A stretch of 64,000 nt of DNA. Source: a virus. Positions within the stretch are counted from its first letter, which is position 1. Each line of letters opens with the position of its first letter. A model generated the notes under the pieces. It did not search any database, had not been told where the DNA came from, and saw only the letters and a program-made list of their open reading frames with translations. Both the position numbers and the translations under genes were made by a program. Of this stretch, positions 4,148 to 43,440 are shown one piece after another. Location of the stretch: the IMG/VR virus record IMGVR_UViG_3300050343_000256, positions 1 through 64,000 of that record; one strand, written 5' to 3'.

Positions 4148-4354
4148 TCAGGTTGGTAAGTCCAGGCAATAACCAGACATCCCGTACTCAGGCTCACTGT
4201 TCTCTGGCGCCATCTCATTAAAGTCAGAAACGAGTGACCTGGGTATCAACTTATCCCTACGGAATGCCCTACGCATTTCGTTCAAGTTGAAAGGCGACAG
4301 CCCATCACGGATATCTAATTCCAACTCCGTCCCGGCCAGTCTGAAATCATCCAT
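4148..4354 (-). CDS. hypothetical protein with N-terminal RLAG
   Basis: MDDFRLAG; overlaps the end of 4347-4550. Confidence 0.6.
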   Translation of the reverse strand: MDDFRLAGTELELDIRDGLSPFNLNEMRRAFRRDKLIPRSLVSDFNEMAPENSEPEYGMSGYCLDLPT

Positions 4355-4550
4355 CGATCAATTTCTCAAGCTTGGCCTTGCCAACAATTGTCTCTCCCTG
4401 CTGGTAGTAAAAGCTGTCGGTCTTCCCGGCAGCCTTTAATGCCTTGCAAATGCTTACCCATTTATCAGCTTCCGTATCAACCCAAAGACCCTTATGTAAT
4501 TCATCAGGACTACTCAAGAAATCATCAGTCATCAGGCTGAACAATCTCAT
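4347..4550 (-). CDS. small cyanophage hypothetical protein
   Basis: W..I..AL..AGKTDSFYY pattern. Confidence 0.6.
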   Translation of the reverse strand: MRLFSLMTDDFLSSPDELHKGLWVDTEADKWVSICKALKAAGKTDSFYYQQGETIVGKAKLEKLIDG

Positions 4551-4673
4551 GTTCTTCGCACAATCTAATGCACTCCTTCACAAGCGCATAGTACGAACTA
4601 TCAGTTTTATGACCTTCTTCCAGAGTCAATACAACCCTGGAATACAAGTCACATTCCCACTGCTGGGGAGTAG

Positions 4674-5261
4674 TCATGAAGGCAATACTTGGTCGCGCTC
4701 CTGGTCAACTGCCTGGCCCTGGCTCAGGAAATTCATCAGGTCAATCAAGCCTGCTCCACTTGCAGTTACGCCTAACGAGACACCACTAACAGCGCCAACC
4801 CTGGCGATGTCTCCTTTTGTGCCTGGATCAGCAAGAGCTCCTGCTATTTGCGCTTTTGCCTGAGAAATACCTTCCCTAGTCATAATGCCTGGGCCCTCAG
4901 CACGAGCAATGGTTTCACCCATTTGCTGAAGCTGCCCACTATTCATTTGACCCATGCGCCCTAGCAAGTCCTTGGCTGCGACTTTGGACAAGCTTTCTTG
5001 ATTCAAAGGAGGCCGACCACTGGGGATGCCCATTGACTGAAAAAGGTCACGAGTGTTGTTCGCACTATCACCTCTCCTAAATGACTCTCTACGAATAATA
5101 TCTGCAGCTGCTAAAGCGCGATCGTTCTGACTACGACCCATCGTTGCTTTAAGCCGCCCTGCTTTTTCTTTGTCAGCAACCCCACCGTGCTTTGCGGCCT
5201 CATCCGCAAAATAGTTAATCATTCTCCCTCTATTGCTAGGGATTAAATCTTGTGGTCGCAC
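4674..5261 (-). CDS. hypothetical protein, possibly virion-associated
   Basis: 195-aa ORF; TAGAAT upstream on the - strand near 5290. Confidence 0.65.
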   Translation of the reverse strand: MRPQDLIPSNRGRMINYFADEAAKHGGVADKEKAGRLKATMGRSQNDRALAAADIIRRESFRRGDSANNTRDLFQSMGIPSGRPPLNQESLSKVAAKDLLGRMGQMNSGQLQQMGETIARAEGPGIMTREGISQAKAQIAGALADPGTKGDIARVGAVSGVSLGVTASGAGLIDLMNFLSQGQAVDQERDQVLPS

Positions 5262-5308
5262 GACTTAAATGAGCATTTTCTGTGTTCATTCTAGGTCGTG
5301 TTTTTTTA

Positions 5309-5328
5309 TGCCCCTCTTCAACAGTGCG
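5309..5328 (+). promoter_or_regulatory. CAAC box copy 10
   Basis: TGCCCC-TCTT-CAAC-AGTGCG after a T-tract. Confidence 0.8.
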
Positions 5329-5359
5329 TTTTAGAGGGTTTCACTTCGCTTAATGATCC

Positions 5360-5698
5360 ATGAGCTTTAAATTGCCACGTATTTGGCGCTTTCAATGCAG
5401 GTACTACAACGATCCATCTGATTTCAACAACGTCACGTTCGCTTACGTCGACGAAGACCATCTTGAAAGCGCAATTCAAGTTGGCGTTAAATCAGATCAC
5501 ATTGTCCACCAATTCGGAGAAGACAACAAAGACGACTCGTTCATCGACGAGAAAACGGGTACTACCCACTACGGCAAGTCCCACCCACTAGGCACAGTCA
5601 GCCCTCAAAGGGTGTTTGCAATCAAGAAACGCAAAGAGCGTCAAGAAGCTGAAAAGCTTGCGCATAACGCCGACATTGCTCGGCTGACCAGCACCTAA
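5360..5698 (+). CDS. hypothetical protein
   Basis: ORF after box 10, followed by a hairpin at about 5706-5736. Confidence 0.7.
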   Translation: MSFKLPRIWRFQCRYYNDPSDFNNVTFAYVDEDHLESAIQVGVKSDHIVHQFGEDNKDDSFIDEKTGTTHYGKSHPLGTVSPQRVFAIKKRKERQEAEKLAHNADIARLTST

Positions 5699-7738
5699 CC
5701 CTCTCGGCCCCGGCAGGCGTCATGCTTGCTGGGGCTTGCGCGTCTCCTATTTTCGTGCATCATATGCATGACTGGTCACACGACATGAATGCTAATCCTG
5801 AGATTTACTGCCTTCGCTCTCTCCGCCATGCAGCGGCTGAGCTCCTGGCGCTCATCGAGGCAGAAGACCCCAGCCAAGCATCCACTGGAGACAGCGAAAA
5901 AGCACGACTCATCAGTCAATTCATCCATGACGCAGACGAACGGCTTCAACTCAAGTAACCGCTACCTTCCTCAACTCTATGGCACTGACACCACTCGACT
6001 CCAGGTCACAGACAGAAAGACTGGACTTATCTGTTTGTATAAAACCAAGGATGTCTATCAACAAATTGAGATTATCAAGCATCTCAGGGATCAAAAGCCT
6101 CTGGACTTGGTCCCGTACTGCCTTATCAATCCGCAAGGCACCATCCAATCAACGCCTCGTCGACGAGCTGATTAACCACGTAAAAGTCAGACAACCGCTG
6201 CAAATTCGGTTGCATGCTCATGACGACTACCCGCAAAGAATATCTTTTGACTGCTTCGTCGATCAAAAGATTCGGGTCGTTGAACGCATGCACAAGTTTG
6301 GTGGCAATGCTTGTAAAAAGCTTGCCGCTTTCATGTTGGCTGCCGATGACACAAACCTTGAGGCCCTTATCGACTCCAAAGTTATCTTCGAGAATCTTGT
6401 CTCTAAGTACCTAGACGGTGGGATCTTCGATCGTGGAACCTGACTTCATACTCTGCGAAACGCCTAACAAATACTATTGCTTAACTCCCTTGTCGAACTT
6501 CGGCAAGGAATTAATCAAGCAATTTGAAGGCTATCCAACCCTAGGCTCCGCTCTGCTTCTCAACCAGGAGCAGAGCTTTTTAGTCAATGGACTAATTAAA
6601 CAGCTAGGGCACTCAGTCGCACAAAGAAGTTATCACCATCAGCCGATCTCAACTGACATGCCTGCTGTCAAACCTTCAGCTGCACCAACAGTTGTAAAAG
6701 ACACGCGGTACAAGTCAAGAACGCGCCACTTCACAAGCTACAGCGACAACTTCTTCCCAAACCAAAACGGATCAACAAAATGTTTATCAGACAAAGAATT
6801 ATGTGTAATCCAATCGCTTGAAAACTACCAAGTCGCTAACCCAAGGCTGATTACAGCCTCCCTTGACTCCTTTCAACTGACACCTACGAATGATTATCCC
6901 ATCAACTGCTCACACAACACAGGCTCGCCGCACACCACCAAGATCACAAGAGAAAAGATCAACTAAAAGCAAACGACCTTGCAACAGGTCAAAATCGTAA
7001 GCGAGCCTGGGCGATCCATTAAAGACTGATGGACCGGTGACTGGTATTTCTTCCGCGTAGATCACGGTCAAAGGAATGCAAGGGCAATGGCAATTAACTG
7101 CAGGAGAGGAGCAGATATCTTGGGTTCTAGAGCCATGGAATGCAATGTGCAACTTCTGCAGAAGGTTTCACTTCAACTTCATCAAAGGCGCGGTGCAAGT
7201 TGAGAATGGCTGGGCTCCAGCGCTACGTTCTTCGACAAGGATTCTTAATCCTAGAAGAGCCCGAGCCTGAGGAAGAACCCATGACTTGGTCCCAACCGGG
7301 GCAGGAAGTTCCGGTTGTCGTGCAACCCCAAACACCTAACCAAATCGTGGCTCAGGCATCAGAGCACATGATCAACAGTTGGCTGGCAGTTCGCCAGACA
7401 TATCCAAGAGTTCGCAGGTATTACAGGACTTCGATGACATCGCATTCACGTGGGAAGTCAGTTAAGGGCGCAACTGATCTCTGTCAATCGCAACTCATGA
7501 CATCAAACATCACGCATCAATCACCATCCATCTACCCAGAAGATTATCCAGGCAATGAATGGTACGACGCTGAAATCGCTTACTTAAAAAGTAAACGACC
7601 TGATCCTGACGATCTCGAGGACTCAGACGATGGGCTGTAAGCACCTAACAGTTTGAGTGGCTCGGATCTTTAACTTCCGGGCCTTTTCCTTTTCAGCTTT
7701 AAGCCGAATCATCATGTCTAAATTAATTGCTCGCATGC

Positions 7739-7846
7739 TCAGCCCACCCACCGAGAGTACGCCACTCCTCGGTACACAAAGGTCACTTCACGCAGAACAC
7801 CAGTTCCTGACTGGCGACCAGAAGCTTGCCACTTACGTGTCGACAT
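7739..7846 (-). CDS. DUF4278-like microprotein
   Basis: FVYRGVAY motif. Confidence 0.5.
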   Translation of the reverse strand: MSTRKWQASGRQSGTGVLREVTFVYRGVAYSRWVG

Positions 7847-7943
7847 CTGAAGTCTCTCAAACAGCAACGCCCCCGTCGTATGGCGCTGATGGTTGCGGCT
7901 ATTAAGCCCGACGATTTCTACAACTCTAACAACATTAATTCCA

Positions 7944-8240
7944 ATGATTGCCAAGCTTCATCCCAGGTTCACGATGCTCACAGACGCAAGTCACAAATGG
8001 GTCAAAGTCAGGAAGTCATACCTAGAAGACTTAATTGGCAATGACTGGCGCAAGTACTTCACTTGCTCTAGCTACGAAAGAACTGACTTTGTCTACCTCG
8101 AGGAACAGAAAGACACGGTTACCTTTTTAAAGGAATGCCGCAAGAAAGACATCCACCCTGAGTTTGTCTGCGCCGAACACAAAACAGATCGACCCTCAAA
8201 GATTCGCGGCTACGAACCCTTGGCTCCCATGGATTTATGA
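7944..8240 (+). CDS. conserved phage hypothetical protein (D.sH.W.kV...YLEE.D family)
   Basis: TDASHKWVKV...VYLEEQKD. Confidence 0.7.
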   Translation: MIAKLHPRFTMLTDASHKWVKVRKSYLEDLIGNDWRKYFTCSSYERTDFVYLEEQKDTVTFLKECRKKDIHPEFVCAEHKTDRPSKIRGYEPLAPMDL

Positions 8241-8818
8241 CTTCATCACAAACAGACCAGTCGTTTGTCAAAGATCTATTTGACACATTATTTGGGACCG
8301 TCGATACAGAAATGATCGACCTGTCCGATGACGACACGGCTGGCATTGAAGCTATTGACCTCGAAAAACTAGTCGTAACTGACATGACTGCATCCACTAA
8401 AGACAAGATCTCTGACGAATCAATCAGAGCAGCTCAACGCAAATTTGCCAAGGTTTACCAAGCCTTCTTCGAACAGTGGGAAACCCAGCAAGAACGTAGT
8501 GACTACGCAGACAGCGCTGGTGGTAAAGGCTGGATCGGTTCTCATTCCTGCAGTACTGCCAATGAGCACAGTTCCGTTGTTGCTTGGAGCTCAGACAGCG
8601 ACAAGATCTACACCATGGGACCCAAGTTCTACGTCGCCTTGGCGCGGTGGAACAGAAAAGCAGAGAAAGATGGATTCACTCCAATCAGATTCTCAAACTT
8701 ACACACGACTCCTTACATGCACACAAACTCAGAACGACGCCCCCTTCCCAAGGCAAGCGACTTCTGGAGTGCATTTCACGGTATCGGCGAACCACTTAGC
8801 TTCGCAATCACGTCATGA
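8237..8818 (+). CDS. hypothetical protein
   Basis: 193-aa ORF with ATGA overlaps at both ends. Confidence 0.7.
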   Translation: MTSSQTDQSFVKDLFDTLFGTVDTEMIDLSDDDTAGIEAIDLEKLVVTDMTASTKDKISDESIRAAQRKFAKVYQAFFEQWETQQERSDYADSAGGKGWIGSHSCSTANEHSSVVAWSSDSDKIYTMGPKFYVALARWNRKAEKDGFTPIRFSNLHTTPYMHTNSERRPLPKASDFWSAFHGIGEPLSFAITS

Positions 8819-9459
8819 ACCACTTAACTAAGACAATAACAATCAAGATCAAATCAAATGAACTTGAGCGAATTGATAAGGCAGCAGTAGAGCGCGGAAT
8901 TAGCCGTAGCGCTTTTATGCGTGAATGCTGCTTTAAGACCATAGAAGGGCCTCTCGCGGATAGCAACACTATTCGTTCAATTCTTCAGCGACTTGATCAC
9001 CTTGACACCCATCTACTAGCTAATGAGCTACACCTACACCACACTCCCATCACTCAGCCTGCTGAATTCAAAGTCATCAAGCTCAAGCGCAGTGGTCCCA
9101 GCCCGGTCAATCTGTTTCTTCCTGGGAAGCAGGTAAATGCCTGGCTGACGGTGGGACAAGCAGCGCGATCTCAATCTCTACAAACTTCTATGACTAACTA
9201 CACCACACCCATCACCAGCCTCAACGGCACAAGCCGTTCTGACTTGCATGAAGAATGGCTATCTGCCAGGACACTTCTGTCCCAGGCGCTAGAAGAACTG
9301 AAAGCAGCTACTTGTCATCCAAGAGACTTTCAGTTCCAAGAAAGTGGAGCTTGGGACAAAGCACAGCAAGAGAAGTCAACAGTTCTTGCATACGCAGAAG
9401 ACGCCTTGGATCTTGCGTCCGCATGGGTCGTTGCGACTCAACCTTCTAAGGAGAACTAA
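8815..9459 (+). CDS. ribbon-helix-helix (CopG-like) N-terminus in frame with a second phage domain; internal start at 9190 likely
   Basis: ITIKIKSNELERIDKAAVERGISRSAFMR; later MTNYTTPITSLNGTS...HPRDF. Confidence 0.6.
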   Translation: MNHLTKTITIKIKSNELERIDKAAVERGISRSAFMRECCFKTIEGPLADSNTIRSILQRLDHLDTHLLANELHLHHTPITQPAEFKVIKLKRSGPSPVNLFLPGKQVNAWLTVGQAARSQSLQTSMTNYTTPITSLNGTSRSDLHEEWLSARTLLSQALEELKAATCHPRDFQFQESGAWDKAQQEKSTVLAYAEDALDLASAWVVATQPSKEN

Positions 9460-10177
9460 TGAAACACTTCAAAGTCGCTTACGAGCAACGCCTCTGGATT
9501 AACGGTCACGGCTACTCAACCAGCAGGCACTTCCAAGACATCTACGCCAAAGACATGGACCGCGCCCTGGGCAAGTGGTCTAACCAACAACTCGACAATC
9601 AATCGCTGCTCTGCATTACCGAACAATCATGAACATTCATCTCATCGTCTCCGAGGCTGAGCAAATGGCCATCGTCAATGCTCTTGCTTTCTACAACGAC
9701 ATGCACATGTCGGATACAAACCGACTACTCGCTAAAGGTCACGCATTCCCCGACCTAAATCAATGGCGCACGGTCTTCACAGAAGACAATCGCGGCAACG
9801 ACTGCGAAGGCCCGATCGATCAGCTTGCTACCAAAATCGCTAACTGCGCATGACACTACATGGACTTGTCATCATTCTGAACACACACCTTATCCAACCA
9901 ACCAATGACCCTCTCAACCAACTTCATCGTTAAACTCACAGCAACAAAAGCTTCCCACAAACGTATTGGCTACGTCAACAACTCTGGTGACATAACTGAT
10001 CATATTTTTGAAGCAAGGATTTTTACTTTTAAAGAGCAAGCGCAAGCCATTGCTACTGCCTACTCAAGCAAGTCAAGCAAAGTTTCAGCTCGAGTTATCA
10101 AAGCACCTTCAGTTGGCAAGACACTTGAAAGTTTCAGTCGACACTTAGACAAATGCATTTCCACATCCAACTAACCC

Positions 10178-10513
10178 ATGGAATTCACAGATCAAGACGC
10201 TCTTGACGCGATTGCACGTCTGATGAATGGCAATGAATGGGACTCAGAACTGGTCTCCCAAATTGCTGAAATCATTCATCACACCGGTCGCCCTCTTAAA
10301 GAGCCCGTGTATTTCCACAACACCACTCTTATCCAAGACATCGAGGGCTACCTCGCAGACAACCACACCCACCTATCCGAGCAACAGATCAAAGATGTTG
10401 CCCCCACCATTCAAGGGAAGCTTTCCTATGAAGGCATCTACACCCAGATCGATTCTCTTGTCTTGTATCTTCTGGGTAACTTAGGAGATAGCGAACAGAC
10501 TCCTCCTGAATAA
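10178..10513 (+). CDS. hypothetical phage protein
   Basis: Part of a tightly packed run of small + strand ORFs (9459-10739). Confidence 0.65.
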   Translation: MEFTDQDALDAIARLMNGNEWDSELVSQIAEIIHHTGRPLKEPVYFHNTTLIQDIEGYLADNHTHLSEQQIKDVAPTIQGKLSYEGIYTQIDSLVLYLLGNLGDSEQTPPE

Positions 10514-10735
10514 CTCTGAAGCTTGCGATGCCGCCGCAATCCCGATGTACGACTTACTCGACATCGCCTGTGCTGCAATGGCTGCACTTGAATTAGACCG
10601 TATCAGCGATAAAGAACATGCTTTTAAACATGTAATGAATCGCGTTTACGGCTACATGACTCCTGCCGCCAGGGCGGACTACCAAGAGTGGGTAGAACGC
10701 AAAGGCTGGAAAGAGAAAGAGCAAATCATCCTGCC

Positions 10736-11275
10736 TTAAACGCAGCGAAGCGTGGCCTTTAAATACCACGTTGTTTTGTTGGCGTCAGCCATCAACTCGG
10801 CGAGGTAGTTGGCCACGTCCAAGGCTTTCATTTCGATTGCCTCTGGCTCCAGCTCACAGATCATCTCGCACAAATCACAAAGATTTGCGTGATAGGTCAT
10901 CAGCATGTCCCTGCCGTCATGGCTGGTGACATTGTTGAAACACGCAGGCATCTCATCCTTCAGACCACATGCACACATCGGCATGTAAAAGTCCATCGCC
11001 CGAACAAACTCAGCGATTGTGTCGAACTGTTCCTGGTGAGCTTCATACCTCTCCTTTAGGAATCCATGCACAGCAATGAAGTTTGAACCCTCATAATTCA
11101 GGTGAATCAAGTGTGACTGAGTCTGCATCTCTTTCAAGAATGAAGCCAGTCGCACTAGATCCTGAACCAATGAGGAACAAGGGACCATAGCTTTCTCGTG
11201 AGGCACCACCATTACGCCATCTAAGGCAGTCGCTGGCATGTCAGCGTTATGCATCACAAGAGAATCTCTCAACAC
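10736..11275 (-). CDS. dps: Dps/ferritin-like protein
   Basis: HLNYEGSNFIAVHGFL..RYE....FDTIAEFVRAM ferroxidase-centre pattern; W near the C-terminus. Confidence 0.85.
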   Translation of the reverse strand: MLRDSLVMHNADMPATALDGVMVVPHEKAMVPCSSLVQDLVRLASFLKEMQTQSHLIHLNYEGSNFIAVHGFLKERYEAHQEQFDTIAEFVRAMDFYMPMCACGLKDEMPACFNNVTSHDGRDMLMTYHANLCDLCEMICELEPEAIEMKALDVANYLAELMADANKTTWYLKATLRCV

Positions 11276-11505
11276 AGTTTAGTAACTACAGCTTCAGGCA
11301 AGCACCTCAACATCGCATGAAACGGGAGTCACATTTTTGAGCTCTCTATAAATCTCTATTTTGAGCTTTTGGTCTATGGACTCAGTACGAATCAAGCGCC
11401 TGACTACGGCTTGGACGGAGCTACATTCCATCTCGTAGGAAGCTTGCATAGGCGCAGGTGCCAGCAAAAGCCCTGCAATTAGAAACACTGTCATCTGTAA
11501 ATATT

Positions 11506-11554
11506 AGCTCTGCCGAAAGGTGGAGCTTTTTTTATGCACTTTTTCAACAGTGCA
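11506..11554 (+). promoter_or_regulatory. terminator hairpin plus CAAC box copy 11
   Basis: AGCTCTGCC-GAAA-GGTGGAGCT, T-tract, then TGCACT-TTTT-CAAC-AGTGCA with perfect arms. Confidence 0.85.
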
Positions 11555-11577
11555 TTTTCAATTGATTCCTTCGTTTA

Positions 11578-12243
11578 ATGACTGATTCATCCGTGCTTGA
11601 TTTCATCCCGCAAAACTCGCCCCTCAGAACACTTAATTCTCCGAAAAGCGCATTTGGCTCAAAGCTAATACAAGTAGTCCAACCTGTCATGATCTTTTTG
11701 AGCTTTGAGAGCAGGTTCTACAAAGCCGAAAAGGTCTTCAACAAACACTCAAAAACAAGAGAGTATATCCCAAATGTTCACGGAAAAATCGAAGCAGTAA
11801 CCATAGTCAACCCAAAAAACACACAGCGGGTCAATGTTCAGGGTTCCTGCCTAAACGAAGAGACAAACGAGAAGGAACGCTGGATTCTCTCCTTTTCAAC
11901 TGTGAAGAAGCAACAAACCTACCTGTCTCTTCTGCCAAAGCTAAAAGTCGTTAACTTGCCTGAACAGTCGCTCACAATTCAGCCTCGGCTTGGAAACAGA
12001 GCAACGTTCATGGATGTATTTATCAATGGGGATCCAAGGCAAAGTGTTTACGCAAAGTCGATTGACTGCAGTGATAACGCACTCAACGAGACAGTTAACG
12101 CAATTAGGGAGCAGCTGGGTCTCCAACCGGAGTACCCAGAATGGATGAATCTAAGGACGGATCTTTCCCAGACTCAATCAGTCCCAACCAACTGCGAGAC
12201 CTACTCGGAAGAGCCGGAATCCAGCTCCCAGTCTCAGATCTGA
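11578..12243 (+). CDS. hypothetical protein
   Basis: 221-aa ORF after box 11. Confidence 0.7.
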   Translation: MTDSSVLDFIPQNSPLRTLNSPKSAFGSKLIQVVQPVMIFLSFESRFYKAEKVFNKHSKTREYIPNVHGKIEAVTIVNPKNTQRVNVQGSCLNEETNEKERWILSFSTVKKQQTYLSLLPKLKVVNLPEQSLTIQPRLGNRATFMDVFINGDPRQSVYAKSIDCSDNALNETVNAIREQLGLQPEYPEWMNLRTDLSQTQSVPTNCETYSEEPESSSQSQI

Positions 12244-13693: not shown

Positions 13694-13722
13694 AGCATCA
13701 GGCAAATAAAACAGAAAACACC

Positions 13723-13755
13723 GCATGAGGGGGTTGCGCACCCCCTTTTTCATGT
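13723..13755 (+). terminator. intrinsic terminator
   Basis: AGGGGGT-loop-ACCCCCT followed by a T-run. Confidence 0.6.
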
Positions 13756-14302: not shown

Positions 14303-14379
14303 AAACAAAGACCACTGGTAACAAGTTTCGACCAACACGTCTTCTCGCGAGAACGTGCCATAACTGCAGGGTCAGGCTC

Positions 14380-14460: not shown

Positions 14461-15025
14461 GAAGTCTTCACTACCACAAGAACTCAGAAACGATCATTGC
14501 CGAGGCTAAATTCAAAGCCCTTGAGGCAATACGCAAAAACGATCCGACTCAACTAACTAAACTACAACGTGCTTTTTACGATGCCAATCACCCAGACTCA
14601 AGGTCACCAGTACACGGAACGTGTCGTCAGCACACAAATCAGAGGCCTTCTATCCGCTGCCAGGGAGTACATAAACCAAAAAGATGTAAAACCAACTGAG
14701 CATATAGACCAAACCGATAGAAGCAAAGGAGGCGCACGATGAGCCACGAGACAGTAAGGCTGCAAAAACTAGAAGAGCAAATGAAGTCCTTGGCATACGA
14801 ATTCGCCAACATCAAAGAGACACACAACTACAACGTCAAAAGATATACCTGGATATCAGAGAAGTGCGACAGGATACAGAAAGAGTTTGACGAGCTCAAA
14901 AAAGGTGACAGCAACCTAGAAACCGTTTAACCGCTTTCCACTGAGATAGCTACCCCGCCGAAAGGTGGGGTTTTTAAATGCTGTATTTCATTTACTAAAA
15001 TGGATAAATCTATTCTCTCCAGGCA

Positions 15026-15613
15026 ATGACATTCAGACTAGCTGGAGAAGCTGTTAATACTCCTCGGGAAGTCTTAGTAGCCGCTACTCCAATGGAGATG
15101 AGAGGATTGCTAGATGACTTCACGAATGAAACCATTAAAGGCAATATCTCTCCCGATGCATTTACTAGTGGTTTATTGACACTAGGCGAAGCCGGACACT
15201 CGCCTAATTTTACAGCTCGCCAAATCAAGAATACATTGAAAAATCCTTTAGCAAGAATGTTAGTAGAAAGCCCTGGCATGGCCAAGCAAATGGCAGAAAG
15301 CTCGGTTGGGCTTTTGGATCAGTTTGGAATTAATAGCGACGCAGCTAAAAGCTATATCGGCCCTGGCATGAAATTGCTAACACAAGCAAAGAAAGATGGA
15401 ATCCTTAAGTCAGACGTAACTGACGAAGAGGTTGCTCGGGAGATTCAACGTCCGCTTCACTCAGCCCTCCAAAGCTGGCATAAAGATAATAAAGATAATC
15501 AACAACTACACGACTATCTAGGCTCCGAAAATCCTGGCTGGAATCCGACAGGTCAGGAAGGGCCTATCACGAGGCAAGAAGCCTTGATGATTCCCTTCCT
15601 TAAAGGATATTAA
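15026..15613 (+). CDS. hypothetical protein with N-terminal RLAG
   Basis: MTFRLAG; preceded by a terminator hairpin and TAAAAT rather than a CAAC box. Confidence 0.7.
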   Translation: MTFRLAGEAVNTPREVLVAATPMEMRGLLDDFTNETIKGNISPDAFTSGLLTLGEAGHSPNFTARQIKNTLKNPLARMLVESPGMAKQMAESSVGLLDQFGINSDAAKSYIGPGMKLLTQAKKDGILKSDVTDEEVAREIQRPLHSALQSWHKDNKDNQQLHDYLGSENPGWNPTGQEGPITRQEALMIPFLKGY

Positions 15614-34132: not shown

Positions 34133-34170
34133 ATCACATACGTCTCATCTATCCTAGTTCTAATAGCAGA

Positions 34171-35128: not shown

Positions 35129-35481
35129 TACTCTGGAGCGAACTGACTATTTAGTTGGTTCATCCGCTCACCAAGAGCAGCAAGCTGTTCATTGATCTTC
35201 TTATTCATTGCAGCAGGTGTCTGTTCGTTCCCACCGAAAACTGCTGATTGCCTAGCAATCTGCTGTTGCTGCTGTTGCTGTTGTGCCATTCGTTGGGCCT
35301 CGATCTGAGCTACTTGCTGAAATGCGCTCTGCACTTCGTTTCGGGTAATCAGCTCAGGAACAGATTCTTCGAGCAATGCAAGTCGCTTACTAAGTTGACC
35401 GCTACGAAACACGGCGCTCATTCCTTGCCCGGAAAGAACGCCGATCAGCGCAGCTAGCGCTCCAATTGCAACTGAGCCCAT
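35128..35481 (-). CDS. membrane protein next to the endolysin (lysis accessory candidate)
   Basis: N-terminal transmembrane segment, coiled coil, poly-Q. Confidence 0.55.
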   Translation of the reverse strand: MGSVAIGALAALIGVLSGQGMSAVFRSGQLSKRLALLEESVPELITRNEVQSAFQQVAQIEAQRMAQQQQQQQQIARQSAVFGGNEQTPAAMNKKINEQLAALGERMNQLNSQFAPE

Positions 35482-35513
35482 GAATAAATATGATTCTCAG
35501 CTGAATGTAACAA

Positions 35514-36152
35514 CTAAAGACCTACGATCTCCCTGACACGATTCAAGACATTACCTATAGCCCCAAAGCGTTGTACCTCTTCGGGAGGGATATTTTTCAT
35601 TTTATCCATTGCCATTCTGTTCTTTCCCGCAGGTGATGAAGGCAAGTTGAGAGAAGCCCCTCCCATGTTCTGATACTGACCTCCATACACTGCTTGCAGC
35701 TCGTTAAGAGACTTGCCCCCTTGGCCGTAATACGAGGTGCCTGTTGCTGCTGTGGGGAATGATGCCCATTCCGGAGCTAAGGCATCAGCTACCCTCTCGC
35801 TCATCCCGTCACTTGTAATTACATCCAAGCCTCCCAACCCTTGTAGCCGGCGATCCGCTAACGCCAACGCAGCAATATCTTGATTGATCGGAGAGAAATC
35901 GTTGAGGCCTAGGCTTTTCGCCAAGGGCTCATATGTCGTGCTTAGGAATTGGTACGCTCCTGCCGCATCGCTAGAAAGGCCATTACCAGATTGAATAAGC
36001 CGTGGGTGCCTACTTAAATCATTAAACTTGGCACCTGTGAACATGGTGTTATAACCATCCTCCCCCGCTGTCCCTTCAGCGAACCGTATCGTTTGCAGAA
36101 GCTTTTGCCCCGCAGGAGTATTTCTAAATTGTTCGTAGTAACCCCTACTCAT
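35514..36152 (-). CDS. lambda-R-like lysozyme/transglycosylase (endolysin or virion lysin)
   Basis: TIRFAEGT; SDAAGAYQFL..T; FSP.NQD; EWASFP. Confidence 0.9.
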   Translation of the reverse strand: MSRGYYEQFRNTPAGQKLLQTIRFAEGTAGEDGYNTMFTGAKFNDLSRHPRLIQSGNGLSSDAAGAYQFLSTTYEPLAKSLGLNDFSPINQDIAALALADRRLQGLGGLDVITSDGMSERVADALAPEWASFPTAATGTSYYGQGGKSLNELQAVYGGQYQNMGGASLNLPSSPAGKNRMAMDKMKNIPPEEVQRFGAIGNVLNRVREIVGL

Positions 36153-36486
36153 TGTCTACGCCTAAAACAATTTCGTCCATGTCCAACTCCATTGTGGCAG
36201 ATTCATAGACATCCTTTATGTAATTAACAGCTTCTTCTTCTGTAGGTTCGTAGCCAAATATTGATTCCAGATCTTCCATGCTGTCAGGGGAGAAAGGATC
36301 CCTTTGCTCATCAACCCGGAAAACTATTCCAGCCCCTCTACTGAATTCCATGAAGCTCTGCTTCAGCTGAAACCTCACCTCCCAACAACCCAGCAAGGCT
36401 TCGACGAGTTCCTCCCTGTTGAGATCTTTCGCTTCTAGCTCGACCCGTTTTAGGATGAACTTCTGTTCTTGCGTTAGTTCGTACAT
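36145..36486 (-). CDS. nblA: NblA-like phycobilisome degradation protein with acidic extension
   Basis: ELTQEQKF.L..VE......NREEL...L. Confidence 0.6.
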   Translation of the reverse strand: MYELTQEQKFILKRVELEAKDLNREELVEALLGCWEVRFQLKQSFMEFSRGAGIVFRVDEQRDPFSPDSMEDLESIFGYEPTEEEAVNYIKDVYESATMELDMDEIVLGVDNE

Positions 36487-36859
36487 TTAAAGCCTCGCCG
36501 ATTGTCCAATGCGTCGAGATGGGCGCGACCCACGCGGACACCTTGTCGGCTCGCTTTTGACAAAACCAAGACGTCGACCTCCACCAATCTAAGTAATTCG
36601 GACTAGACCCTTTGGCCCGATTGCAGCGAACGCAGCATGGAACGATGTTGGTTCGAGCCCATCGGTCACCGCCCCACCTTCTGGGTAGAACGTGATCCAA
36701 TGTCATTTCCAATGTAGTGCCTTCAGAATCTTGGGATCGACCGCAGTAAGCGCATCCGTCCCAGGCATCTTTTATTGCTTGCCTATATCTTCTGATCGCT
36801 GCCCTTGGTTGCAAATCTTGCAGAGTGATTATGTACCACTCGGGATGTTCAGGCGTCAT
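36338..36859 (-). CDS. HNH endonuclease
   Basis: CAYCG; TLDHVLPR..GG; NIVPCCVRCNRAKG. Confidence 0.9.
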   Translation of the reverse strand: MTPEHPEWYIITLQDLQPRAAIRRYRQAIKDAWDGCAYCGRSQDSEGTTLEMTLDHVLPRRWGGDRWARTNIVPCCVRCNRAKGSSPNYLDWWRSTSWFCQKRADKVSAWVAPISTHWTIGEALNVRTNARTEVHPKTGRARSERSQQGGTRRSLAGLLGGEVSAEAELHGIQ

Positions 36860-36924
36860 AAGCTAGCAATAGCTATATGGCAACCCTAAATATATTTTTT
36901 AGTGAACAAAATACATCAACACCC

Positions 36925-37050
36925 AAGCTCGATTAGCCTGGGCATTCGACTTAATTCTTCCAGGTGCGGCTAAGGCCCCATCAAAACCTTGAAGTCCTTA
37001 CGGATACTTCACACCTGGAGGCTCAGAGGCTTCGCCACCCCACCGAGCTC
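36925..37050 (-). ncRNA. candidate structured ncRNA (about 125 nt)
   Basis: 9-bp closing stem and nested helices with a GNRA loop; promoter immediately upstream. Confidence 0.65.
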
Positions 37051-37054
37051 CCAA

Positions 37055-37083
37055 AGCATAGCGAGTAAGCATGCATAGTGCAA
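37055..37083 (-). promoter_or_regulatory. sigma70-type promoter
   Basis: TTGCAC-17 nt-TATGCT. Confidence 0.65.
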
Positions 37084-37096
37084 GAGCTTTCTCGCA

Positions 37097-37133
37097 TAAA
37101 AAAGCCCCTCTGGTGGCGGCCAGAAGGGCTTTC
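37097..37133 (-). terminator. intrinsic terminator, possibly bidirectional
   Basis: A6-GCCC...GGGC-TTT hairpin after the OMP-like gene. Confidence 0.7.
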
Positions 37134-37146
37134 GTTTTGAATGCTA

Positions 37147-37506
37147 CTAGAACGAGTACTTGGCTCCGAGCTTAGTGCCGTAGGAATTAAGCTCGTCTCC
37201 GGTCAAAAATGCTGCTTCCCAATAGGCAGAAAGCTTTTCGGTGACGCCAATACTGCCGCCCACCTTGCCGCTGAGTTCTACCTCCCCGTCAGCTCCTGCA
37301 GGAGTCACGTAGGCCGGTCCAGCCTGGGCGTAGACAGCCATTGCGCCGAGCTGGCCTTCAGCACCAATGGCCAGCTCAGTGATCGCACCGGAGTGGTCTT
37401 GTCCAACGAATCCGTCGTTGCGTTCGCCGTTCACGTAGAAGCCACCGGCTTGGGCGGGAATAGCCAGGGCGAAAGCACCGGCCAAAGCGAAAATAGATTT
37501 AAACAC
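37147..37506 (-). CDS. small outer-membrane beta-barrel-like protein
   Basis: Signal peptide ending AQA; amphipathic strands; C-terminal KYSF. Confidence 0.75.
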   Translation of the reverse strand: MFKSIFALAGAFALAIPAQAGGFYVNGERNDGFVGQDHSGAITELAIGAEGQLGAMAVYAQAGPAYVTPAGADGEVELSGKVGGSIGVTEKLSAYWEAAFLTGDELNSYGTKLGAKYSF

Positions 37507-37615
37507 TGCGTAGGTAAAAATACGTCAATACAATTTTAGTAATAATCTTGCGTTATGAAATCCTTGTCATGCGGACAAGCAATCGCTACGCTGCACGACA
37601 AGTCACACACGGCGC

Positions 37616-37891
37616 ATGACCGATAACGCCACAGCTGCTCGGCTCCGTCGAGAGTTTTACCTTGCCAAGGCGCAAAAGGTCCGCGACCGCCCTGGGCTCA
37701 AGTACTCATTTACTGAGAACGGCAAGATACGCTTCGGCTTCGCTTCAGGCAGCTGCAAGCGCCAGATTCGTGATGCTGTGCTGAAGGCTCACCCCGACGC
37801 CACTTTTATTCCGTCAGGGTCACACCTTCCTCGGTCGTCACAGTCGTTAAAGAGTGACCGCCCTCTGCAAGCAGCTCATAAGCGGCACTGA
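37616..37891 (+). CDS. small basic protein convergent with the integrase
   Basis: Own promoter-like TTGTCA-17-TACGCT at about 37564. Confidence 0.5.
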   Translation: MTDNATAARLRREFYLAKAQKVRDRPGLKYSFTENGKIRFGFASGSCKRQIRDAVLKAHPDATFIPSGSHLPRSSQSLKSDRPLQAAHKRH

Positions 37892-39581
37892 AGTCGATTG
37901 GCTGCCAGTCGATCTCCCCCTCGCCAATCGAAAGGCCAAGAAGCAATGCTTCGCTGTCGACATGAATGCCAATGCCGAGTTGCTTTAAAGCTGCATTGGC
38001 TTGATGACGTTGCTCCTGAGAGCTAGTTCCGTTAATTAGATCAAACTTCAGGGGTTCAATAATTGTCTCCACAGCTTCGAGAGCTAATGGATTTTCGTTC
38101 CTCGACAGCTTGGCCCGTATATCAGCCAGCCGTATGTCGACACTTCGCTCTTCCTGATCTTTGTCTGCGATCCGATGCTGCAGAGTGCTGAAAATACTGT
38201 CGAAAGCTGGACCTCCAATTTCAGCGGCACGGCCAATGCTTTCCTGAATGTTTAAACGTTCGGTGTTGACCTGTTCTTTCTTAAGTAAAAGTCGATCTAC
38301 TTGAGATCGCAGGTTCACAGCTTCTCCTTCTACGTTTCCACTGCCGCTTAATTGCAGCAAGGAATTTAGGTTTATCCGGGACAAGACAATTGCCAATACG
38401 TCACGCATCGGCAAGTAGGGACGTCGACATTCTTCGCTGTTCATTCGTGAGCGACATGCGATATATCTGATCAATGCATTCGGTGGATGGCCTCCGACAC
38501 ACGTGGACATCGAGCCGCCGCATGCACAACGAGTCAGGCCGCGCCCAATCCAATGCATCTTGGTGTTTGGGCCTGGACGATTTTTTGTTCTATTCCGAGC
38601 GGCGATGATCGAGATCACTTCTTCGACTTCTCGCTTTGGAAGAACAGGAGGAAATACGCCCTCAACGATTTCTTTTGGCTCTTGCGCAGCTCCACGAACA
38701 ACGCCTTGCTGAGCGCGTGGGTCGTAGTAATTACCACTGCCATCCTTCAGCTCTCCATTTGGACCCCGCTTAAGAGGCTTCCACGCCCCTTTCGGCTTGA
38801 TCGCTACAGCTCCATAAATCTGGTGTGACGCACGGATCATTGAAGAGAGATTGCTAGCCGTCCACATAGATGCCTTCATCGGCTTGTGGCCCTCTTCGTT
38901 GAGAACTTTTGCCGTCTGCGAGTACCCGTAATTCTTAAGCAGTTCCATCGCCTTGGCGATAGCAACCGCCTTTTCGTTCAGCTCCCAACGCTGACGCTTC
39001 TCATCCCAGCTCACCCAACAAGGAGCGTTTTGCTTCTTCCTGCTTACAACACCACTGGCTAATTGTTTACGAACCTCTTCCCAGTTGTATTCCTGTCGAC
39101 GCGCAAGCCGCAGCGAATACTCATGAGCAGCTTGACATTTCAGGACCAGCATTATGAGTGCTGCGCCATCCCCATCGATTTTCTCTTTGTTGTAAAAATT
39201 ATTGTCTTCTATCGTCACGATCGTGACGTCTGCGTTGATGAGCCTTAGGAAGACTCCTTCCAGCGCCTTGCGACTCTTCATCCGAGATACCCGATCGACA
39301 GCTTCGATAAGAAGTACCGGGTTAGTACCAAGCAAGCGCCGATCAGCCATCTCTAGAAAGCGGTCCAGGGGGCTTCCTTTCCGCATGTGCTTGGCGTGAT
39401 ATGCCGATTTACCTGGATCGCTTAGCGCTCGATCGTCAGCCAGTTCGAGCCCATGCCGATCGCACCAGTTGAGAGCGTCGGATCCCTGCCGGGCAAGGCC
39501 AGAACCTTTGGTCTGAATGATATGAGAGACCCTCTCGAAAGACCAGATCGTGCCTGCCTTGAAGCCCAGATCTCTGTCCAC
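37806..39581 (-). CDS. large serine recombinase (integrase)
   Basis: FERVS catalytic Ser; DRVSR; recombinase domain; C.CG...C Zn ribbon; coiled coil. Confidence 0.92.
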   Translation of the reverse strand: MDRDLGFKAGTIWSFERVSHIIQTKGSGLARQGSDALNWCDRHGLELADDRALSDPGKSAYHAKHMRKGSPLDRFLEMADRRLLGTNPVLLIEAVDRVSRMKSRKALEGVFLRLINADVTIVTIEDNNFYNKEKIDGDGAALIMLVLKCQAAHEYSLRLARRQEYNWEEVRKQLASGVVSRKKQNAPCWVSWDEKRQRWELNEKAVAIAKAMELLKNYGYSQTAKVLNEEGHKPMKASMWTASNLSSMIRASHQIYGAVAIKPKGAWKPLKRGPNGELKDGSGNYYDPRAQQGVVRGAAQEPKEIVEGVFPPVLPKREVEEVISIIAARNRTKNRPGPNTKMHWIGRGLTRCACGGSMSTCVGGHPPNALIRYIACRSRMNSEECRRPYLPMRDVLAIVLSRINLNSLLQLSGSGNVEGEAVNLRSQVDRLLLKKEQVNTERLNIQESIGRAAEIGGPAFDSIFSTLQHRIADKDQEERSVDIRLADIRAKLSRNENPLALEAVETIIEPLKFDLINGTSSQEQRHQANAALKQLGIGIHVDSEALLLGLSIGEGEIDWQPIDFSAAYELLAEGGHSLTTVTTEEGVTLTE

Positions 39582-39595
39582 GTCCCAAACCGGTA

Positions 39596-39643
39596 ATGTA
39601 CTTCGATCACCGTAGTGAGGACACTGCCACCGGTCAAGTACAT
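39596..39643. other. candidate attP site
   Basis: 48-bp dyad: ATGTACTT/AAGTACAT outer arms, AGTG/CACT inner arms, central GG. Confidence 0.6.
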
Positions 39644-40142
39644 CGCTTAAGTGCCTGGTATCACTACATCCAGGGCCAACTAATTACTACATCTCCCTTC
39701 CAGAGCTCGGGGTCGATGGGAGTCTTCTTGACATAATTTCTAAATGCCTGCTGAAATTCAGCCAGCGGCATCCCGACATTTTTCGCCGCATGGGCGACAT
39801 TTGTTTGGCCTCTGTAGCAATCGTGCAGGGCTTCCTCCAGAGAGGTAATCATCAAGAAAAATCCGTAGAAAGAACGCTAACGATTTCGCTAAGGCCTACT
39901 CGGCACTGCCCCTGGATTTAGCACTCCATATTTTCAAGGTTGTAATCCAGTAGACATCGGTAAACCTGATCCTTTTTCTTAACGAGAAATGCTTGCTCAG
40001 CTGGGTCCCCTCCAGGCCAGAGCTCAAGCGCCTTGCATGTCGTTCTGTACTCAAGCCTGAGGCTGTTAATGCAGTAAGAGAAACTAGCGACTGGCTGAGA
40101 GTCCATTACTAATAACAATTAGTTGAGTTCATCACAGTTATT

Positions 40143-41015
40143 TTATGGAATCCTAATGTCAATGTCATACGGCTTGGGCTTGAACGGTGACAAATACAAG
40201 GCTGCACGCGCTGCTCGAGTCAGCGGAGATGCGGTTGAGTCTTTACCAGCGGCGTGCATTTTTTGCTTGTAGTTGCGACTGTCCGCAGGAGGACGCATCA
40301 TCATTCTCTCTGGCGTGTTTTGCTCTTCTGAAATCAAGTTATTAAGTCGAACCTTGGCTTCAGGGTCGTAGATGCTTTGGACCTGCAGCAAGGCCTTGTC
40401 GGGGCGGAAGGAGCCTGAAACAAGATCGGGATCCTCTGCCTCATTGACCATGTCGTAGGTATCTTTAATTCGAACAGAACCGTCATCACCGACGTCAGCC
40501 ATGAAACGACCCAGCGTCTGCGTAACAGCTTTGTCGCTTGTCAATCCGTAAGGATTAACAGGGCCAGACGTCGGCACACCAGGCCCCGCTTTCATAGTGA
40601 TTTTCTGAACGGGTTCTTTACTAAGGCCTCCAGGGAACAGTGAGTCAAAGTCCCCGCTTCGCGCTGCTTGGCTCTTTCGCAGCCTTTCAGCAAGCGATTG
40701 GTCCAAGGGGGTGACTTCGGGAAGCCCTAGCTGTTTGTTTTCCAGCTTGCGTGCATCGGTTTTTGCTTCATCAACCATGGCTGCAAAACGAGATTCCTCT
40801 TCTGGGCTCATCAGGAACAAATCTCGAGCGACTTCTTTGGTGTCGACATATTCGACAGTCTGATCAGGCTGTTCCGTAGCCGCCCTGAGCGAACGGATTG
40901 TTGAGTCATCAAGCTCCAAGCTTTCATTGCCGACACCAGACACGTACCTAAGGAACAGGTTCATGCGGTCGGGAAGAATATTTAGAGCATGACCTGCCAA
41001 ACGCTTTAAGGGCAT
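40143..41015 (-). CDS. hypothetical protein with N-terminal RLAG
   Basis: MPLKRLAG; TLGRF......V...DTYD. Confidence 0.7.
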   Translation of the reverse strand: MPLKRLAGHALNILPDRMNLFLRYVSGVGNESLELDDSTIRSLRAATEQPDQTVEYVDTKEVARDLFLMSPEEESRFAAMVDEAKTDARKLENKQLGLPEVTPLDQSLAERLRKSQAARSGDFDSLFPGGLSKEPVQKITMKAGPGVPTSGPVNPYGLTSDKAVTQTLGRFMADVGDDGSVRIKDTYDMVNEAEDPDLVSGSFRPDKALLQVQSIYDPEAKVRLNNLISEEQNTPERMMMRPPADSRNYKQKMHAAGKDSTASPLTRAARAALYLSPFKPKPYDIDIRIP

Positions 41016-41021
41016 CTTTAC

Positions 41022-41309
41022 TTACCAGGAGTAATTACAGGACCAATAGCCAGGCGTCGTCTTATCTTTTTTCTCTGAACAATTGTGGCGACTGCGAAAG
41101 TTTTTTCTCCGATCAGCATCACCATGACCGGAGCCTTTTTTTCCGCCCTCGGAATGATGCTCCATATTTGGATCACCAAAGCGGACGATTTTATCTTTAC
41201 CGTTCTTGTCTTTGACTAAGACTGCAAACTTCTTATTTTCGCCAGGAGTTTTTTTGGGCTTGTTGTAGCCACTAAATACTTCTCCTGCATAGCGAATTTT
41301 CTTGCTCAT
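41022..41309 (-). CDS. conserved basic phage protein
   Basis: KIVRFGDPNM...RRKNFRSRHNC...GYWSC..W. Confidence 0.8.
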   Translation of the reverse strand: MSKKIRYAGEVFSGYNKPKKTPGENKKFAVLVKDKNGKDKIVRFGDPNMEHHSEGGKKGSGHGDADRRKNFRSRHNCSEKKDKTTPGYWSCNYSW

Positions 41310-41512
41310 GATTTACTCCGGTACGCAGTGGCACGCCGACGAGCCTCCGCTGCTGCCTTTGTGTTCTTGACCTGATGATTCACTGGCTTGCCTTTCGACG
41401 CACGCTTCTTCTTGTCGTCAGTCGCTTTGCGCTCCTCTTTCGTCATCGAGGCCCAGGCTGCCTTGGGGAGGTAACGCTCTGTACGACCTTTCTCGCGTGC
41501 TTTATCAGTCAT
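41306..41512 (-). CDS. DUF5872-like C-terminal half
   Basis: RYLPKAAW..MT..E.KAT..KK. Confidence 0.65.
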   Translation of the reverse strand: MTDKAREKGRTERYLPKAAWASMTKEERKATDDKKKRASKGKPVNHQVKNTKAAAEARRRATAYRSKS

Positions 41513-41874
41513 TAAAAGGGCATGTCCGAATCATTGGGTACAAGGTTTTTTGATTGCAGGTAACTTGCAATGCGGACAATTTGCTCAGCCGCTGCTCGCT
41601 TCGTCTCAGGCGTTTTTAGGTATTCCGGTCCTTGGCCACTAGGGTCTACATATCGATAATCTGGATTAGCGCTAAGGGCCTCTAGGATCTGACGAAGTTC
41701 CAACTCATGGTCTGCAATCTCCTGGATCGATGGTGATTCGACCATGCCGTATTGGTCGTAACCAAGATCTTCGTCCGATAAATACATCGGTCGACCCTTT
41801 GCATCTCGACCACCCTTATCTTCAGCCAAAAGCCGAAGGACATCAACATTGCCAGCCAGACGTTGAGCAATCAT
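41512..41874 (-). CDS. hypothetical protein with N-terminal RLAG
   Basis: MIAQRLAG; stop/start overlaps on both sides. Confidence 0.7.
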   Translation of the reverse strand: MIAQRLAGNVDVLRLLAEDKGGRDAKGRPMYLSDEDLGYDQYGMVESPSIQEIADHELELRQILEALSANPDYRYVDPSGQGPEYLKTPETKRAAAEQIVRIASYLQSKNLVPNDSDMPF

Positions 41875-42101
41875 TATTTCTTCCCCTCGTACTCCTCTTT
41901 AGTCTGCCAATCTTCTTTGGACCACTTACTTAATTTATTGCTAGAAGATTTCTTCCCTTCATACTGACCACCTTCCTGTTTGTAATATTTAGTGGCAAGT
42001 TGCATCGCACGAGCAGAATGCCCACCCATTTTTTTCTGGGCTTTAGCTTTTGCTTTTGCCCAAAGCTCGGGGTTCTTTTTCTTAGCAGTACCGTCTGACA
42101 T
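41874..42101 (-). CDS. DUF5872-like N-terminal half
   Basis: HSARAMQLA...YK..GG.Y.G...L.KW..EDW.TK. Confidence 0.65.
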   Translation of the reverse strand: MSDGTAKKKNPELWAKAKAKAQKKMGGHSARAMQLATKYYKQEGGQYEGKKSSSNKLSKWSKEDWQTKEEYEGKK

Positions 42102-43072
42102 CAGGAAAAACGCTGGTTGTAATAATCACGAGTCGAATTTGTCAGCCCACGAGTTAATTCGCCCCTGTTCCGCTTGAGCTGACCAGGGACGTAATTCTTA
42201 GCGGAACCTGTACTGCCGCTGATAGGTTTCACCACGCTTGAGGATTCAGCATCGCCAGGTGTCGGACCAGCTGAAGTTACGTCCTGAACAGATACCGATG
42301 TTTTAGGCCCAGAGGAGATTTGATCGCCACCAGTATCAAAAGTTCCAGTAATATTTTCTGGCACATCTCTAGGAGACCCGTCTTCATTAAATGTACTAAT
42401 TCTCCCTGAGGCTGAAATGGGAACCGTATTAGGCATGCCCCCACCTTCGGCAACAACCTCGTTGAACTTGTCTTGATATTGCTGCGGAGCGTTGCTTGCC
42501 GCCTTAGCCCGAATGGACTCGACGTATCCAGCAGGGGCCTGGTCGCCAGGCTTCAATGAACGTAGTGGATGGGTGCTTTCCTTTGCAGCCCTGTCGTCTT
42601 TAATCTTTTTAATCGTTTTTTCGTAAGAGCTTAGTTGTGGTCCAGCTTCGACATCAGCTTGCACTTGCGAATAGTAAGCATTGTCCCGATACTTGGGGGC
42701 AACGTACTTTGAAGGCCCGACACTGGAACGCTTGGGACTCGCTACTGCCTCCTCAATGGATTCACCAACATAACCAGCTTTCCTGATCTGGTTATCATCC
42801 ATCCCCCTGTATTTAGCTTGCAAGTAAGCCGCTTTGCTCGTGGCTCTCGCTCCTCGGAATGGATTGTGATACTGCTGAAAACTGGCATGATTTCCGCCCG
42901 GTGTTTGGGCGTACATGTCTTGTTTCGCCGCATGAATCTCTGCATTATGTTCTTTATGCGCTTTTGCAAAGTTGGCCATCCTGGCCCAACCGTCAACCGC
43001 ACCTTTATTAAGTTGTGCTTGACGCGCCTTAACCTTGGCCATGGCGGCGTCATAGCGGGAATAGTTAATCAC
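42101..43072 (-). CDS. low-complexity putative internal virion protein
   Basis: 323 aa; ends YYNQRFS. Confidence 0.65.
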   Translation of the reverse strand: MINYSRYDAAMAKVKARQAQLNKGAVDGWARMANFAKAHKEHNAEIHAAKQDMYAQTPGGNHASFQQYHNPFRGARATSKAAYLQAKYRGMDDNQIRKAGYVGESIEEAVASPKRSSVGPSKYVAPKYRDNAYYSQVQADVEAGPQLSSYEKTIKKIKDDRAAKESTHPLRSLKPGDQAPAGYVESIRAKAASNAPQQYQDKFNEVVAEGGGMPNTVPISASGRISTFNEDGSPRDVPENITGTFDTGGDQISSGPKTSVSVQDVTSAGPTPGDAESSSVVKPISGSTGSAKNYVPGQLKRNRGELTRGLTNSTRDYYNQRFS

Positions 43073-43110
43073 TTAATTTGCCCTCGGCTTGTTTATCTTG
43101 AGTTGCCATA

Positions 43111-43440
43111 TCAGACTCCTTTTAAAAATCCAGGAAGCGCTGTCTTGCCTCTAATTTGCCTGTGCTTTTCTTCTGCTAAACCACTATTAGGAAGCTCCTC
43201 AAGGGCTTGTTTAGTCATGTATTCCAATCCACCCCGGCGTGGATTGATTTGACCGTAGTCTCCACCACGGAAACCACCTGCGACTAGCTCACCGGAGAGG
43301 GCATCAAGAAAACCTTCTGCAATAGCCTCCTCCATAGCAGCATCTTGCGGCCTAGCGCCCTGGGCAGCTTCACCCATATAGACAACAACGTCAGGACTCA
43401 GTCCTAACCCTGCTCCTGCCAATCGCGAAACAGAGTTCAA
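43111..43440 (-). CDS. hypothetical protein with N-terminal RLAG
   Basis: MNSVSRLAG; TAGAAT upstream. Confidence 0.65.
   Translation of the reverse strand: MNSVSRLAGAGLGLSPDVVVYMGEAAQGARPQDAAMEEAIAEGFLDALSGELVAGGFRGGDYGQINPRRGGLEYMTKQALEELPNSGLAEEKHRQIRGKTALPGFLKGV

Follow-up and report, generated by a model that had tools for sequence, protein, structure and literature searches.

A short N-terminal R-x-A-G motif on unrelated proteins of an S-EIV1-like cyanophage and its possible role in head assembly

We analyzed a 64,000-nucleotide stretch of viral DNA (positions 1 to 64,000 of IMG/VR record IMGVR_UViG_3300050343_000256, hereafter the window) and found that unrelated proteins encoded in it begin with the same short peptide, R-x-A-G. 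The window makes up the first 64 kb of one phage contig, which is 84,978 bp long and has a 391-bp exact terminal repeat; genome coordinates beyond 64,000 refer to the same contig, outside the window. The source is a marine cyanophage related to Synechococcus phage S-EIV1, the sole GenBank phage match, with which it shares a portal protein at 46% identity; its terminase is of the T7 type. We conclude that R-x-A-G is a real, translated element, selected at the peptide level and common to unrelated proteins, and that the S-EIV1-like cyanophages have in R-x-A-G (x mostly L, M, F or Y; 1 to about 10 residues after the start) a portable short linear motif. Because the tag is kept in relatives and is found on proteins of the head module, it probably serves virus assembly as a shared signal for docking or processing. 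More specifically, we propose, with a probability of roughly 45%, that it could be a portable tag through which proteins are drawn into the head as it assembles.

An R-x-A-G peptide at the start of nine proteins

A sequence-only reading of the window had described RLAG within the first nine residues of five proteins (A to E; Table 1) and a near-match, RYAG, at the start of a sixth open reading frame (ORF), that of protein G, and we found all six as described. The six-frame translation of the window contains seven RLAG, five of which are at these ORF starts, and that of the whole genome contains 11, with six at ORF starts. As had also been claimed, the motif is written with different codons (AGA, CGT or CGA for R; CTG, CTA, TTG or CTT for L; GCC, GCT or GCA for A; GGG, GGA, GGT or GGC for G) on proteins that show no other similarity, the best E value in an all-against-all BLAST of seven proteins being 0.075; A and E have a loose AG-x-x-L-x-L continuation in common. 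Since the codons vary at all four positions, a motif acting at the RNA level was rejected.

To quantify the enrichment, we used a greedy set of 155 ORFs (25,995 amino acids, aa), from which one further carrier, protein F, was dropped since it overlaps the lysin gene. Counted over the first 12 residues, RLAG outnumbers every other 4-mer: it occurs there in five ORFs, compared with two occurrences everywhere else, and any other N-terminal 4-mer is found in at most two ORFs. From these counts about 0.1 RLAG would be expected at N-termini (Poisson P about 1e-7). The check that the sequence-only reading had suggested, positional enrichment across related genomes, gave the same picture: in 12 related genomes or contigs, R[LMFY]AG follows closely on a start codon in 25 cases, and in the reversed sequences in one. 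We also built a motif matrix with equal weight per family and scored it against a background of 2,075 internal G-centred windows. Eight N-termini of the genome score 8.8 to 16.4, the next N-terminus scores 2.7 and the internal maximum is 8.2; seven of these eight N-termini were themselves in the matrix, and protein I was not. In total we count nine carriers in the genome, A to E and G in the window and F, H and I outside it. Eight of the nine genes are on the minus strand, which holds the structural and lysis genes, and B is the sole tagged gene on the plus strand, which holds replication-type genes.

The carriers had further been assigned to units preceded by TAGAAT or TAAAAT. This is so in part: we found such boxes before the A unit, E and B, while C, D and G, as internal genes of the E unit, lack one of their own.

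Table 1. Tagged proteins and associated features; positions marked genome lie outside the window, and tag codons are given by position
Feature	Position	Strand	Description
Protein A	4148..4354	-	68 aa, MDDF-RLAG, tag codons 4331-4342
A unit	starts 5261	-	four genes, A last
TAGAAT (-10-like box)	5288..5293	-	32 nucleotides (nt) before first gene of A unit; consensus match only
TAAAAT box	14996..15001	+	30 nt before start of B; consensus match only
Protein B	15026..15613	+	195 aa, MTF-RLAG, tag codons 15035-15046
Protein C	40143..41015	-	290 aa, MPLK-RLAG, tag codons 40992-41003
Protein G	41022..41309	-	95 aa, very basic, MSKKI-RYAG, tag codons 41283-41294; PHROG 7595
Protein D	41512..41874	-	120 aa, MIAQ-RLAG, tag codons 41851-41862
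Small very basic protein	41874-42101	-	weak match to viral DUF5872
Protein E	43111..43440	-	109 aa, TTG start, NSVS-RLAG, tag codons 43414-43425
E unit	43440-37806	-	E first gene; C, D and G inside
TAGAAT box	43467..43472	-	32 nt before TTG start of E
Protein F	genome 70537-70806	-	89 aa, GTG start, RLAG; small, helical
F/lysin overlap	genome 70537-70607
Protein I	genome 78812-79195		Gly/Ala-rich, RRRNAGELF
Protein H	genome 80928-81452		Gly/Ala-rich, LRKAG

Conservation of the motif in relatives

In IMG/VR we found 125 stretches that match, and we kept 80 loci, whose portals are 65-94% identical. The sequence-only reading had named two outcomes that would speak against it, homologs that lack the motif and true starts that lie downstream of it. 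Both can be set aside, since the motif is translated and is conserved in the homologs. What is conserved is R-x-A-G and not strictly RLAG. Orthologs of A, D, E and G keep the motif although the residues next to it have changed: A and its six orthologs read RLAG (three, this genome included), RFAG, QMAG, MLAG and VPAG at the tag site, two orthologs of D read RRMAG, those of E read GRMAG, TRRAG and QAFAG, and about 86 of the 120 G homologs listed read [IV]-R-[YVKLI]-A-G-E-V-F (hand count), the motif being missing in the S-EIV1 homolog and in remoter ones. R-x-A-G (x = L, P, R, I, K or F) lies in the first 10 residues of 16 out of 19 B homologs, with x-F-A-G in two and no motif in one, and the spacer between the tag and the conserved LIAATPEEMRG block varies in this family in both length and sequence. 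C is a member of a large marine viral family (211 matches at E <= 0.001). Among 120 listed homologs, 34 have R-phi-A-G, 19 have an [RKQ]-x-A-G variant, and many of the remaining 67 start M-D-[LF]-A-G-[KR], an extra segment before the family-wide A-[AG]-G. In a separate observation on these families, the C-termini of B and E consist of FLKG and one aromatic or aliphatic residue (PFLKGY and GFLKGV), and close B homologs keep PFL or PFF-x-G-aromatic.

The best-conserved carrier is F. Its gene is flanked by those for the portal and the capsid protein; it comes two genes after the portal and directly precedes the gene for a lysozyme plus M15 lysin. M1, R2, L3, A4 and G5 are invariant in 30 aligned orthologs, while identity elsewhere in the protein is 21-39% in the more distant half of them. 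BLAST, which does not depend on the motif, detected F in 44 out of 80 portal loci; it also detected orthologs in 10 related genomes or contigs, where the site reads RLAG in eight, RLAA in one and RFAS in one. The five codons are written in 22 ways in 48 loci, for which the ORFs had been selected by the motif itself. F bears the motif, and its position and size would suit a small scaffold; a PDB profile search matched only designed helical hairpins, and co-folding of the capsid protein with F, run without controls, gave a score of 0.00, which weighs neither for nor against contact between them. The other two carriers outside the window, H and I, are encoded in a gene block upstream of the terminase, and H orthologs read RFAG, QFAG, RKAG or RLAA.

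At its other end F runs into the lysin gene. The lysozyme plus M15 lysin ORF overlaps the end of F in the +1 frame in all 42 related loci that hold both genes, and its ATG falls inside the conserved I-Y-G codons of F in 22 out of 31 distinct sequences. The simple reading of this arrangement is translational coupling; a frameshift fusion that would place the tag on the lysin is conceivable. This C-terminal end of F also carries a possible second tag (R-F-A-x-I-Y-G-D), which we did not count, its fourth residue being G in only 14 out of 31 sequences and its I-Y-G codons being in part shared with the start of the lysin gene. Its R, F and A, written with six, two and four codons in 31 sequences, are selected at the peptide level.

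In the branch of S-EIV1 itself, represented by six loci, the tag reads phi-A-G-K/R. The H homologs there start MAIAGRLL, VIKLAGRLL or RPLAGRLL, and the C homologs MDLAGR, MPLFNIAGKY or MAPFNLAGR. A terminase 53% identical to that of this genome precedes the C homolog, and a small MKLAGKY protein is found beside it, with the terminase upstream. The portal ORF (44% identity) follows the C homolog with at most two small ORFs between them in five out of six loci, the sixth ending first, so that tagged C- and D-like genes lie between the terminase and the portal on these contigs. In S-EIV1, the positional counterpart of D, which stands between the homologs of both flanking genes, starts MKLAGKY, a 205-aa protein of the structural module has a GTG start followed by RLAG, and the protein just before the capsid gene starts MGLLAGKY; in one S-EIV1-type locus the protein before the capsid gene starts MMKLAGRYA.

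Possible roles of the tag

The sequence-only reading had proposed that the shared peptide is either an address for loading cargo into the virion or a protease site. A shared and selected peptide is what we found; its link to the head is circumstantial, and no phage protease was found to go with a processing site. Specifically, no protease family was detected among 132 ORFs scanned with PHROGs, 129 with Pfam and 39 with NCBIfam, a very divergent protease being conceivable, and the lysin supplies the sole peptidase domain, a cell-wall one of type M15. The capsid protein itself has the HK97 fold according to its AlphaFold2 model (predicted local distance difference test, pLDDT, 77), which Foldseek matched to podophage capsids at E values of 1e-13 to 1e-10. 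Its closest structures are P-SCSP1u, Pan3, GP4 and N4, and the encapsulin shell 8t6r was also matched.

We considered that the tag might be a copy of the N-terminal arm of the capsid protein and rejected this as a general explanation on the basis of a peptide scan and the tag matrix. The capsid N-terminus of this genome, MWIDNDFPKLLGAEL, has a tag-matrix score of -7.0, a value equalled or exceeded by 483 of the 2,075 background windows; the true capsid N-terminus is MWIDNDFPKLLGAELYRPHP in all relatives. Some A orthologs start MDNDFPMLAGARL or MGDNDFPVQMAG, and in the peptide scan an A ortholog came second-best in genome G002 only, where it scored 48 over a background of about 30; in G005 it came fifth, with A outside the top five in the remaining scanned genomes, this one included. 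What remains is a local resemblance to the capsid arm in family A. Apart from the tag, we observed that the major capsid gene of this genome lies in three pieces on the minus strand (window 63055-64000 and genome 64001-64663): exon 1, which starts at 64663, encodes only MWIDND, exon 2 begins FPKLLGAEL near 64437, and the last exon spans 63055-63456. The gene is unsplit in relatives and in S-EIV1, and a LAGLIDADG ORF lies at genome 64748-65455 (+).

Three known systems offer points of comparison. The capsid-targeting sequence (CTS) of phage T4 is described as an N-terminal peptide by which diverse, fast-changing proteins are encapsidated in the scaffolding core, and foreign proteins can be carried by it as well (PMC3012670). 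In both cases a short N-terminal peptide is the sole shared part of many unrelated proteins, and here, too, many small proteins are tagged, strongly basic ones among them, and the head of the phage has the HK97 fold. However, the T4 CTS cleavage motif ends in Glu, and the peptide R-x-A-G is set apart from it. The phage here is podophage-like with a T7-type terminase, its tag is also on the conserved head-module protein F, and no prohead protease was detected, so that removal of the tag is not implied. Because the peptide differs and no prohead protease was found, the tag is not a member of the T4 CTS family; the logic is alike, the sequence and family are not.

In phage 80alpha, according to PMC5744158, capsid and scaffolding proteins bear an N-terminal motif that also occurs in the host ribosomal protein L27 and is cut by the host protease Prp, the N-terminal peptide of the scaffold is essential for assembly, and in other phages this motif is borne by non-homologous proteins. 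The likeness lies in one N-terminal motif on non-homologous morphogenetic proteins without a phage head protease. Unlike the present case, the 80alpha motif copies the leader of a host ribosomal protein and is borne by the capsid protein, whereas the capsid N-terminus here is not tag-like and many more proteins are tagged.

The third system is that of the encapsulins, whose shell has the HK97 fold. Unrelated cargo proteins dock there on the inside of the shell through a short peptide at one terminus, and no proteolysis is involved. The capsid protein here also has this fold, and absence of a protease would favour docking of the encapsulin type; the sequence of the peptide and the terminus that bears it are different, and we are dealing with a tailed phage that has a portal and DNA.

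If the tag does address proteins to the head, the N-terminal peptide would be exposed, would dock on one conserved component of the procapsid (the capsid protein, the portal or a scaffold), and the unrelated carriers would thereby be co-assembled into the head, where they might stay or be delivered with the DNA. Podophages are described as carrying internal ejection proteins (PMC8954989, PMC12002296). Several observations weigh against this proposal. B is encoded among plus-strand replication-type genes (SSB-like, exonuclease, DUF932), and the block of C, D, E and G is about 30 kb from the portal, the S-EIV1 counterparts also being far away. Under the strict pattern, each genome of the more distant relatives shows only 0-3 tagged starts. 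The tag of C lies inside a confidently predicted helix that runs into the conserved domain (helix 2-11; AlphaFold2 model, pLDDT 92.9), and the motif of G is contiguous with a conserved AGEVFxGYNKP, so the motif is not everywhere a detachable leader and may in these two families be partly an intrinsic structural element. Moreover, A and E may be distant relatives, which would reduce the number of independent families.

We weighed the head-tag proposal against three others. R-x-A-G might serve processing only, as the P4-P1 site of a host protease or an unrecognised phage protease that trims 5-10 N-terminal residues, with no addressing role. The motif does look like a set of protease subsites, with a fixed basic residue and then the small residues A and G (G is rarely replaced by A or S), no fixed residue after them (T, E, H, N, A, S, D, Q and K occur) and a variable distance to the N-terminus, and the cutting of 80alpha capsid and scaffolding proteins by Prp (PMC5744158) keeps the host-protease version alive. 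We nevertheless rate it as unlikely: the protease scans were empty, and a cut after the G in C and G would fall inside or at the edge of their conserved N-terminal segment, which is confidently folded. To our knowledge no host protein has an R-x-A-G leader, no search for one having been made. A partner outside the virion, for example a chaperone, an adaptor for degradation, or a component of the membrane or of replication, through which the tag would set the folding, timing or location of an accessory regulon, would suit the position of B in a replication-type block on the other strand and the fact that A to E have no recognisable structural domains in PHROGs, Pfam or NCBIfam. In 80alpha the scaffold N-terminal peptide is reported to be needed for assembly even when uncleaved, and the authors consider a shared chaperone (PMC5744158). 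We give such a partner a low probability, as F, H and I are head-module genes and the tagged genes of S-EIV1-type loci cluster between the terminase, portal and capsid genes.

It is also conceivable, and in our view quite improbable, that there is no common function at all and that the system has been over-counted, the motif being an intrinsic N-terminal structural element (a helix start or cap) that arose by remote ancestry or convergence. This would be consistent with the alignment of the A-G of the C family with the family-wide A-[AG]-G before N-x-L-P-D-R, the fusion of the G motif to a conserved AGEVF, and the AG-x-G-L-G-L-x-P-D of both A and E, but the positional enrichment holds against both internal windows and reversed controls, the B family keeps R-x-A-G despite its variable spacer, the remoter C homologs have an extra, separate phi-A-G-K/R before the domain, and F keeps M-RLAG while the rest of the protein diverges. 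A bolder form of the head-tag proposal, which we regard as doubtful, is loading of the head without a protease in S-EIV1-like cyanophages: the four-residue R-x-A-G (L-A-G-K/R in the S-EIV1 branch) would dock directly on a conserved component of the procapsid in the manner of encapsulin cargo peptides, the small post-portal F would use it too, and in the sublineage of the window the cargo would have been widened to nine proteins, including the very basic, DNA-associated-looking G and the widely conserved C, whose fold is unassigned. In that case the tag would mark the set of injected proteins in metagenomes and offer a handle for placing foreign proteins in cyanophage capsids.

S-EIV1-like cyanophages are a widespread marine and freshwater lineage, abundant and almost unstudied, and nearly all of the tagged proteins are without known function. 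If the tag addresses the head, a four-residue pattern would be enough to pick virion-internal and probably injected proteins from sequence, and cargo would be loaded in a tailed phage seemingly without a head protease, mechanistically nearer to encapsulins than to T4. Even with another partner, the tag would define a co-regulated or co-handled set of nine proteins. In a listing-level search of the literature on cyanophages, capsid targeting and internal proteins, we found no description of an R-x-A-G or RLAG phage motif. We see it as a conserved N-terminal motif that runs through the lineage and falls within the known idea of shared N-terminal assembly tags, with a function that we infer.

Neighbouring genes and further observations

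For C, Foldseek found no PDB match to the predicted fold (best E 0.57), and the matches from VIA-align were all to generic helical hairpins (residues 55-132, with Z at or below 6.0). All matches in BFVD and the ESM Atlas were viral proteins without a name, and tblastn against GenBank phages gave no match. The DNA of the 39.5-44 kb region likewise had no match among GenBank phages, and relatives of a 323-aa neighbour protein were not found in IMG/VR. G has a weak match to DUF5754. Homologs of this protein and of the DUF5872-like protein (41022-41309 and 41874-42101) adjoin the terminase-portal interval on S-EIV1-type contigs.

The unit headed by E ends with a gene (window 37806-39581, minus strand) for a 591-aa protein resembling large serine recombinases, with a PHROG 95 match at 1.5e-31 and weak Pfam matches to Recombinase and a Zn-ribbon. 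Such a gene is unexpected in a phage that is otherwise laid out like a lytic podophage. Further along the same strand, at window 47319-51890, we observed four tandem tail-fibre-like paralogues of about 370-380 aa each, two of which, in alternation, have N-termini with runs of Gly (MGRRFPG-SGGGGGG); the commonest 11-mers of the genome (GGTGGTGGTGG) stem from these paralogues. Finally, GGGGCTTTTTTA occurs five times, at window positions 724, 1467, 1806 and 2886 on the plus strand and 37108 on the minus strand, and its copies have the look of terminator tails belonging to short units repeated within the first 3 kb.

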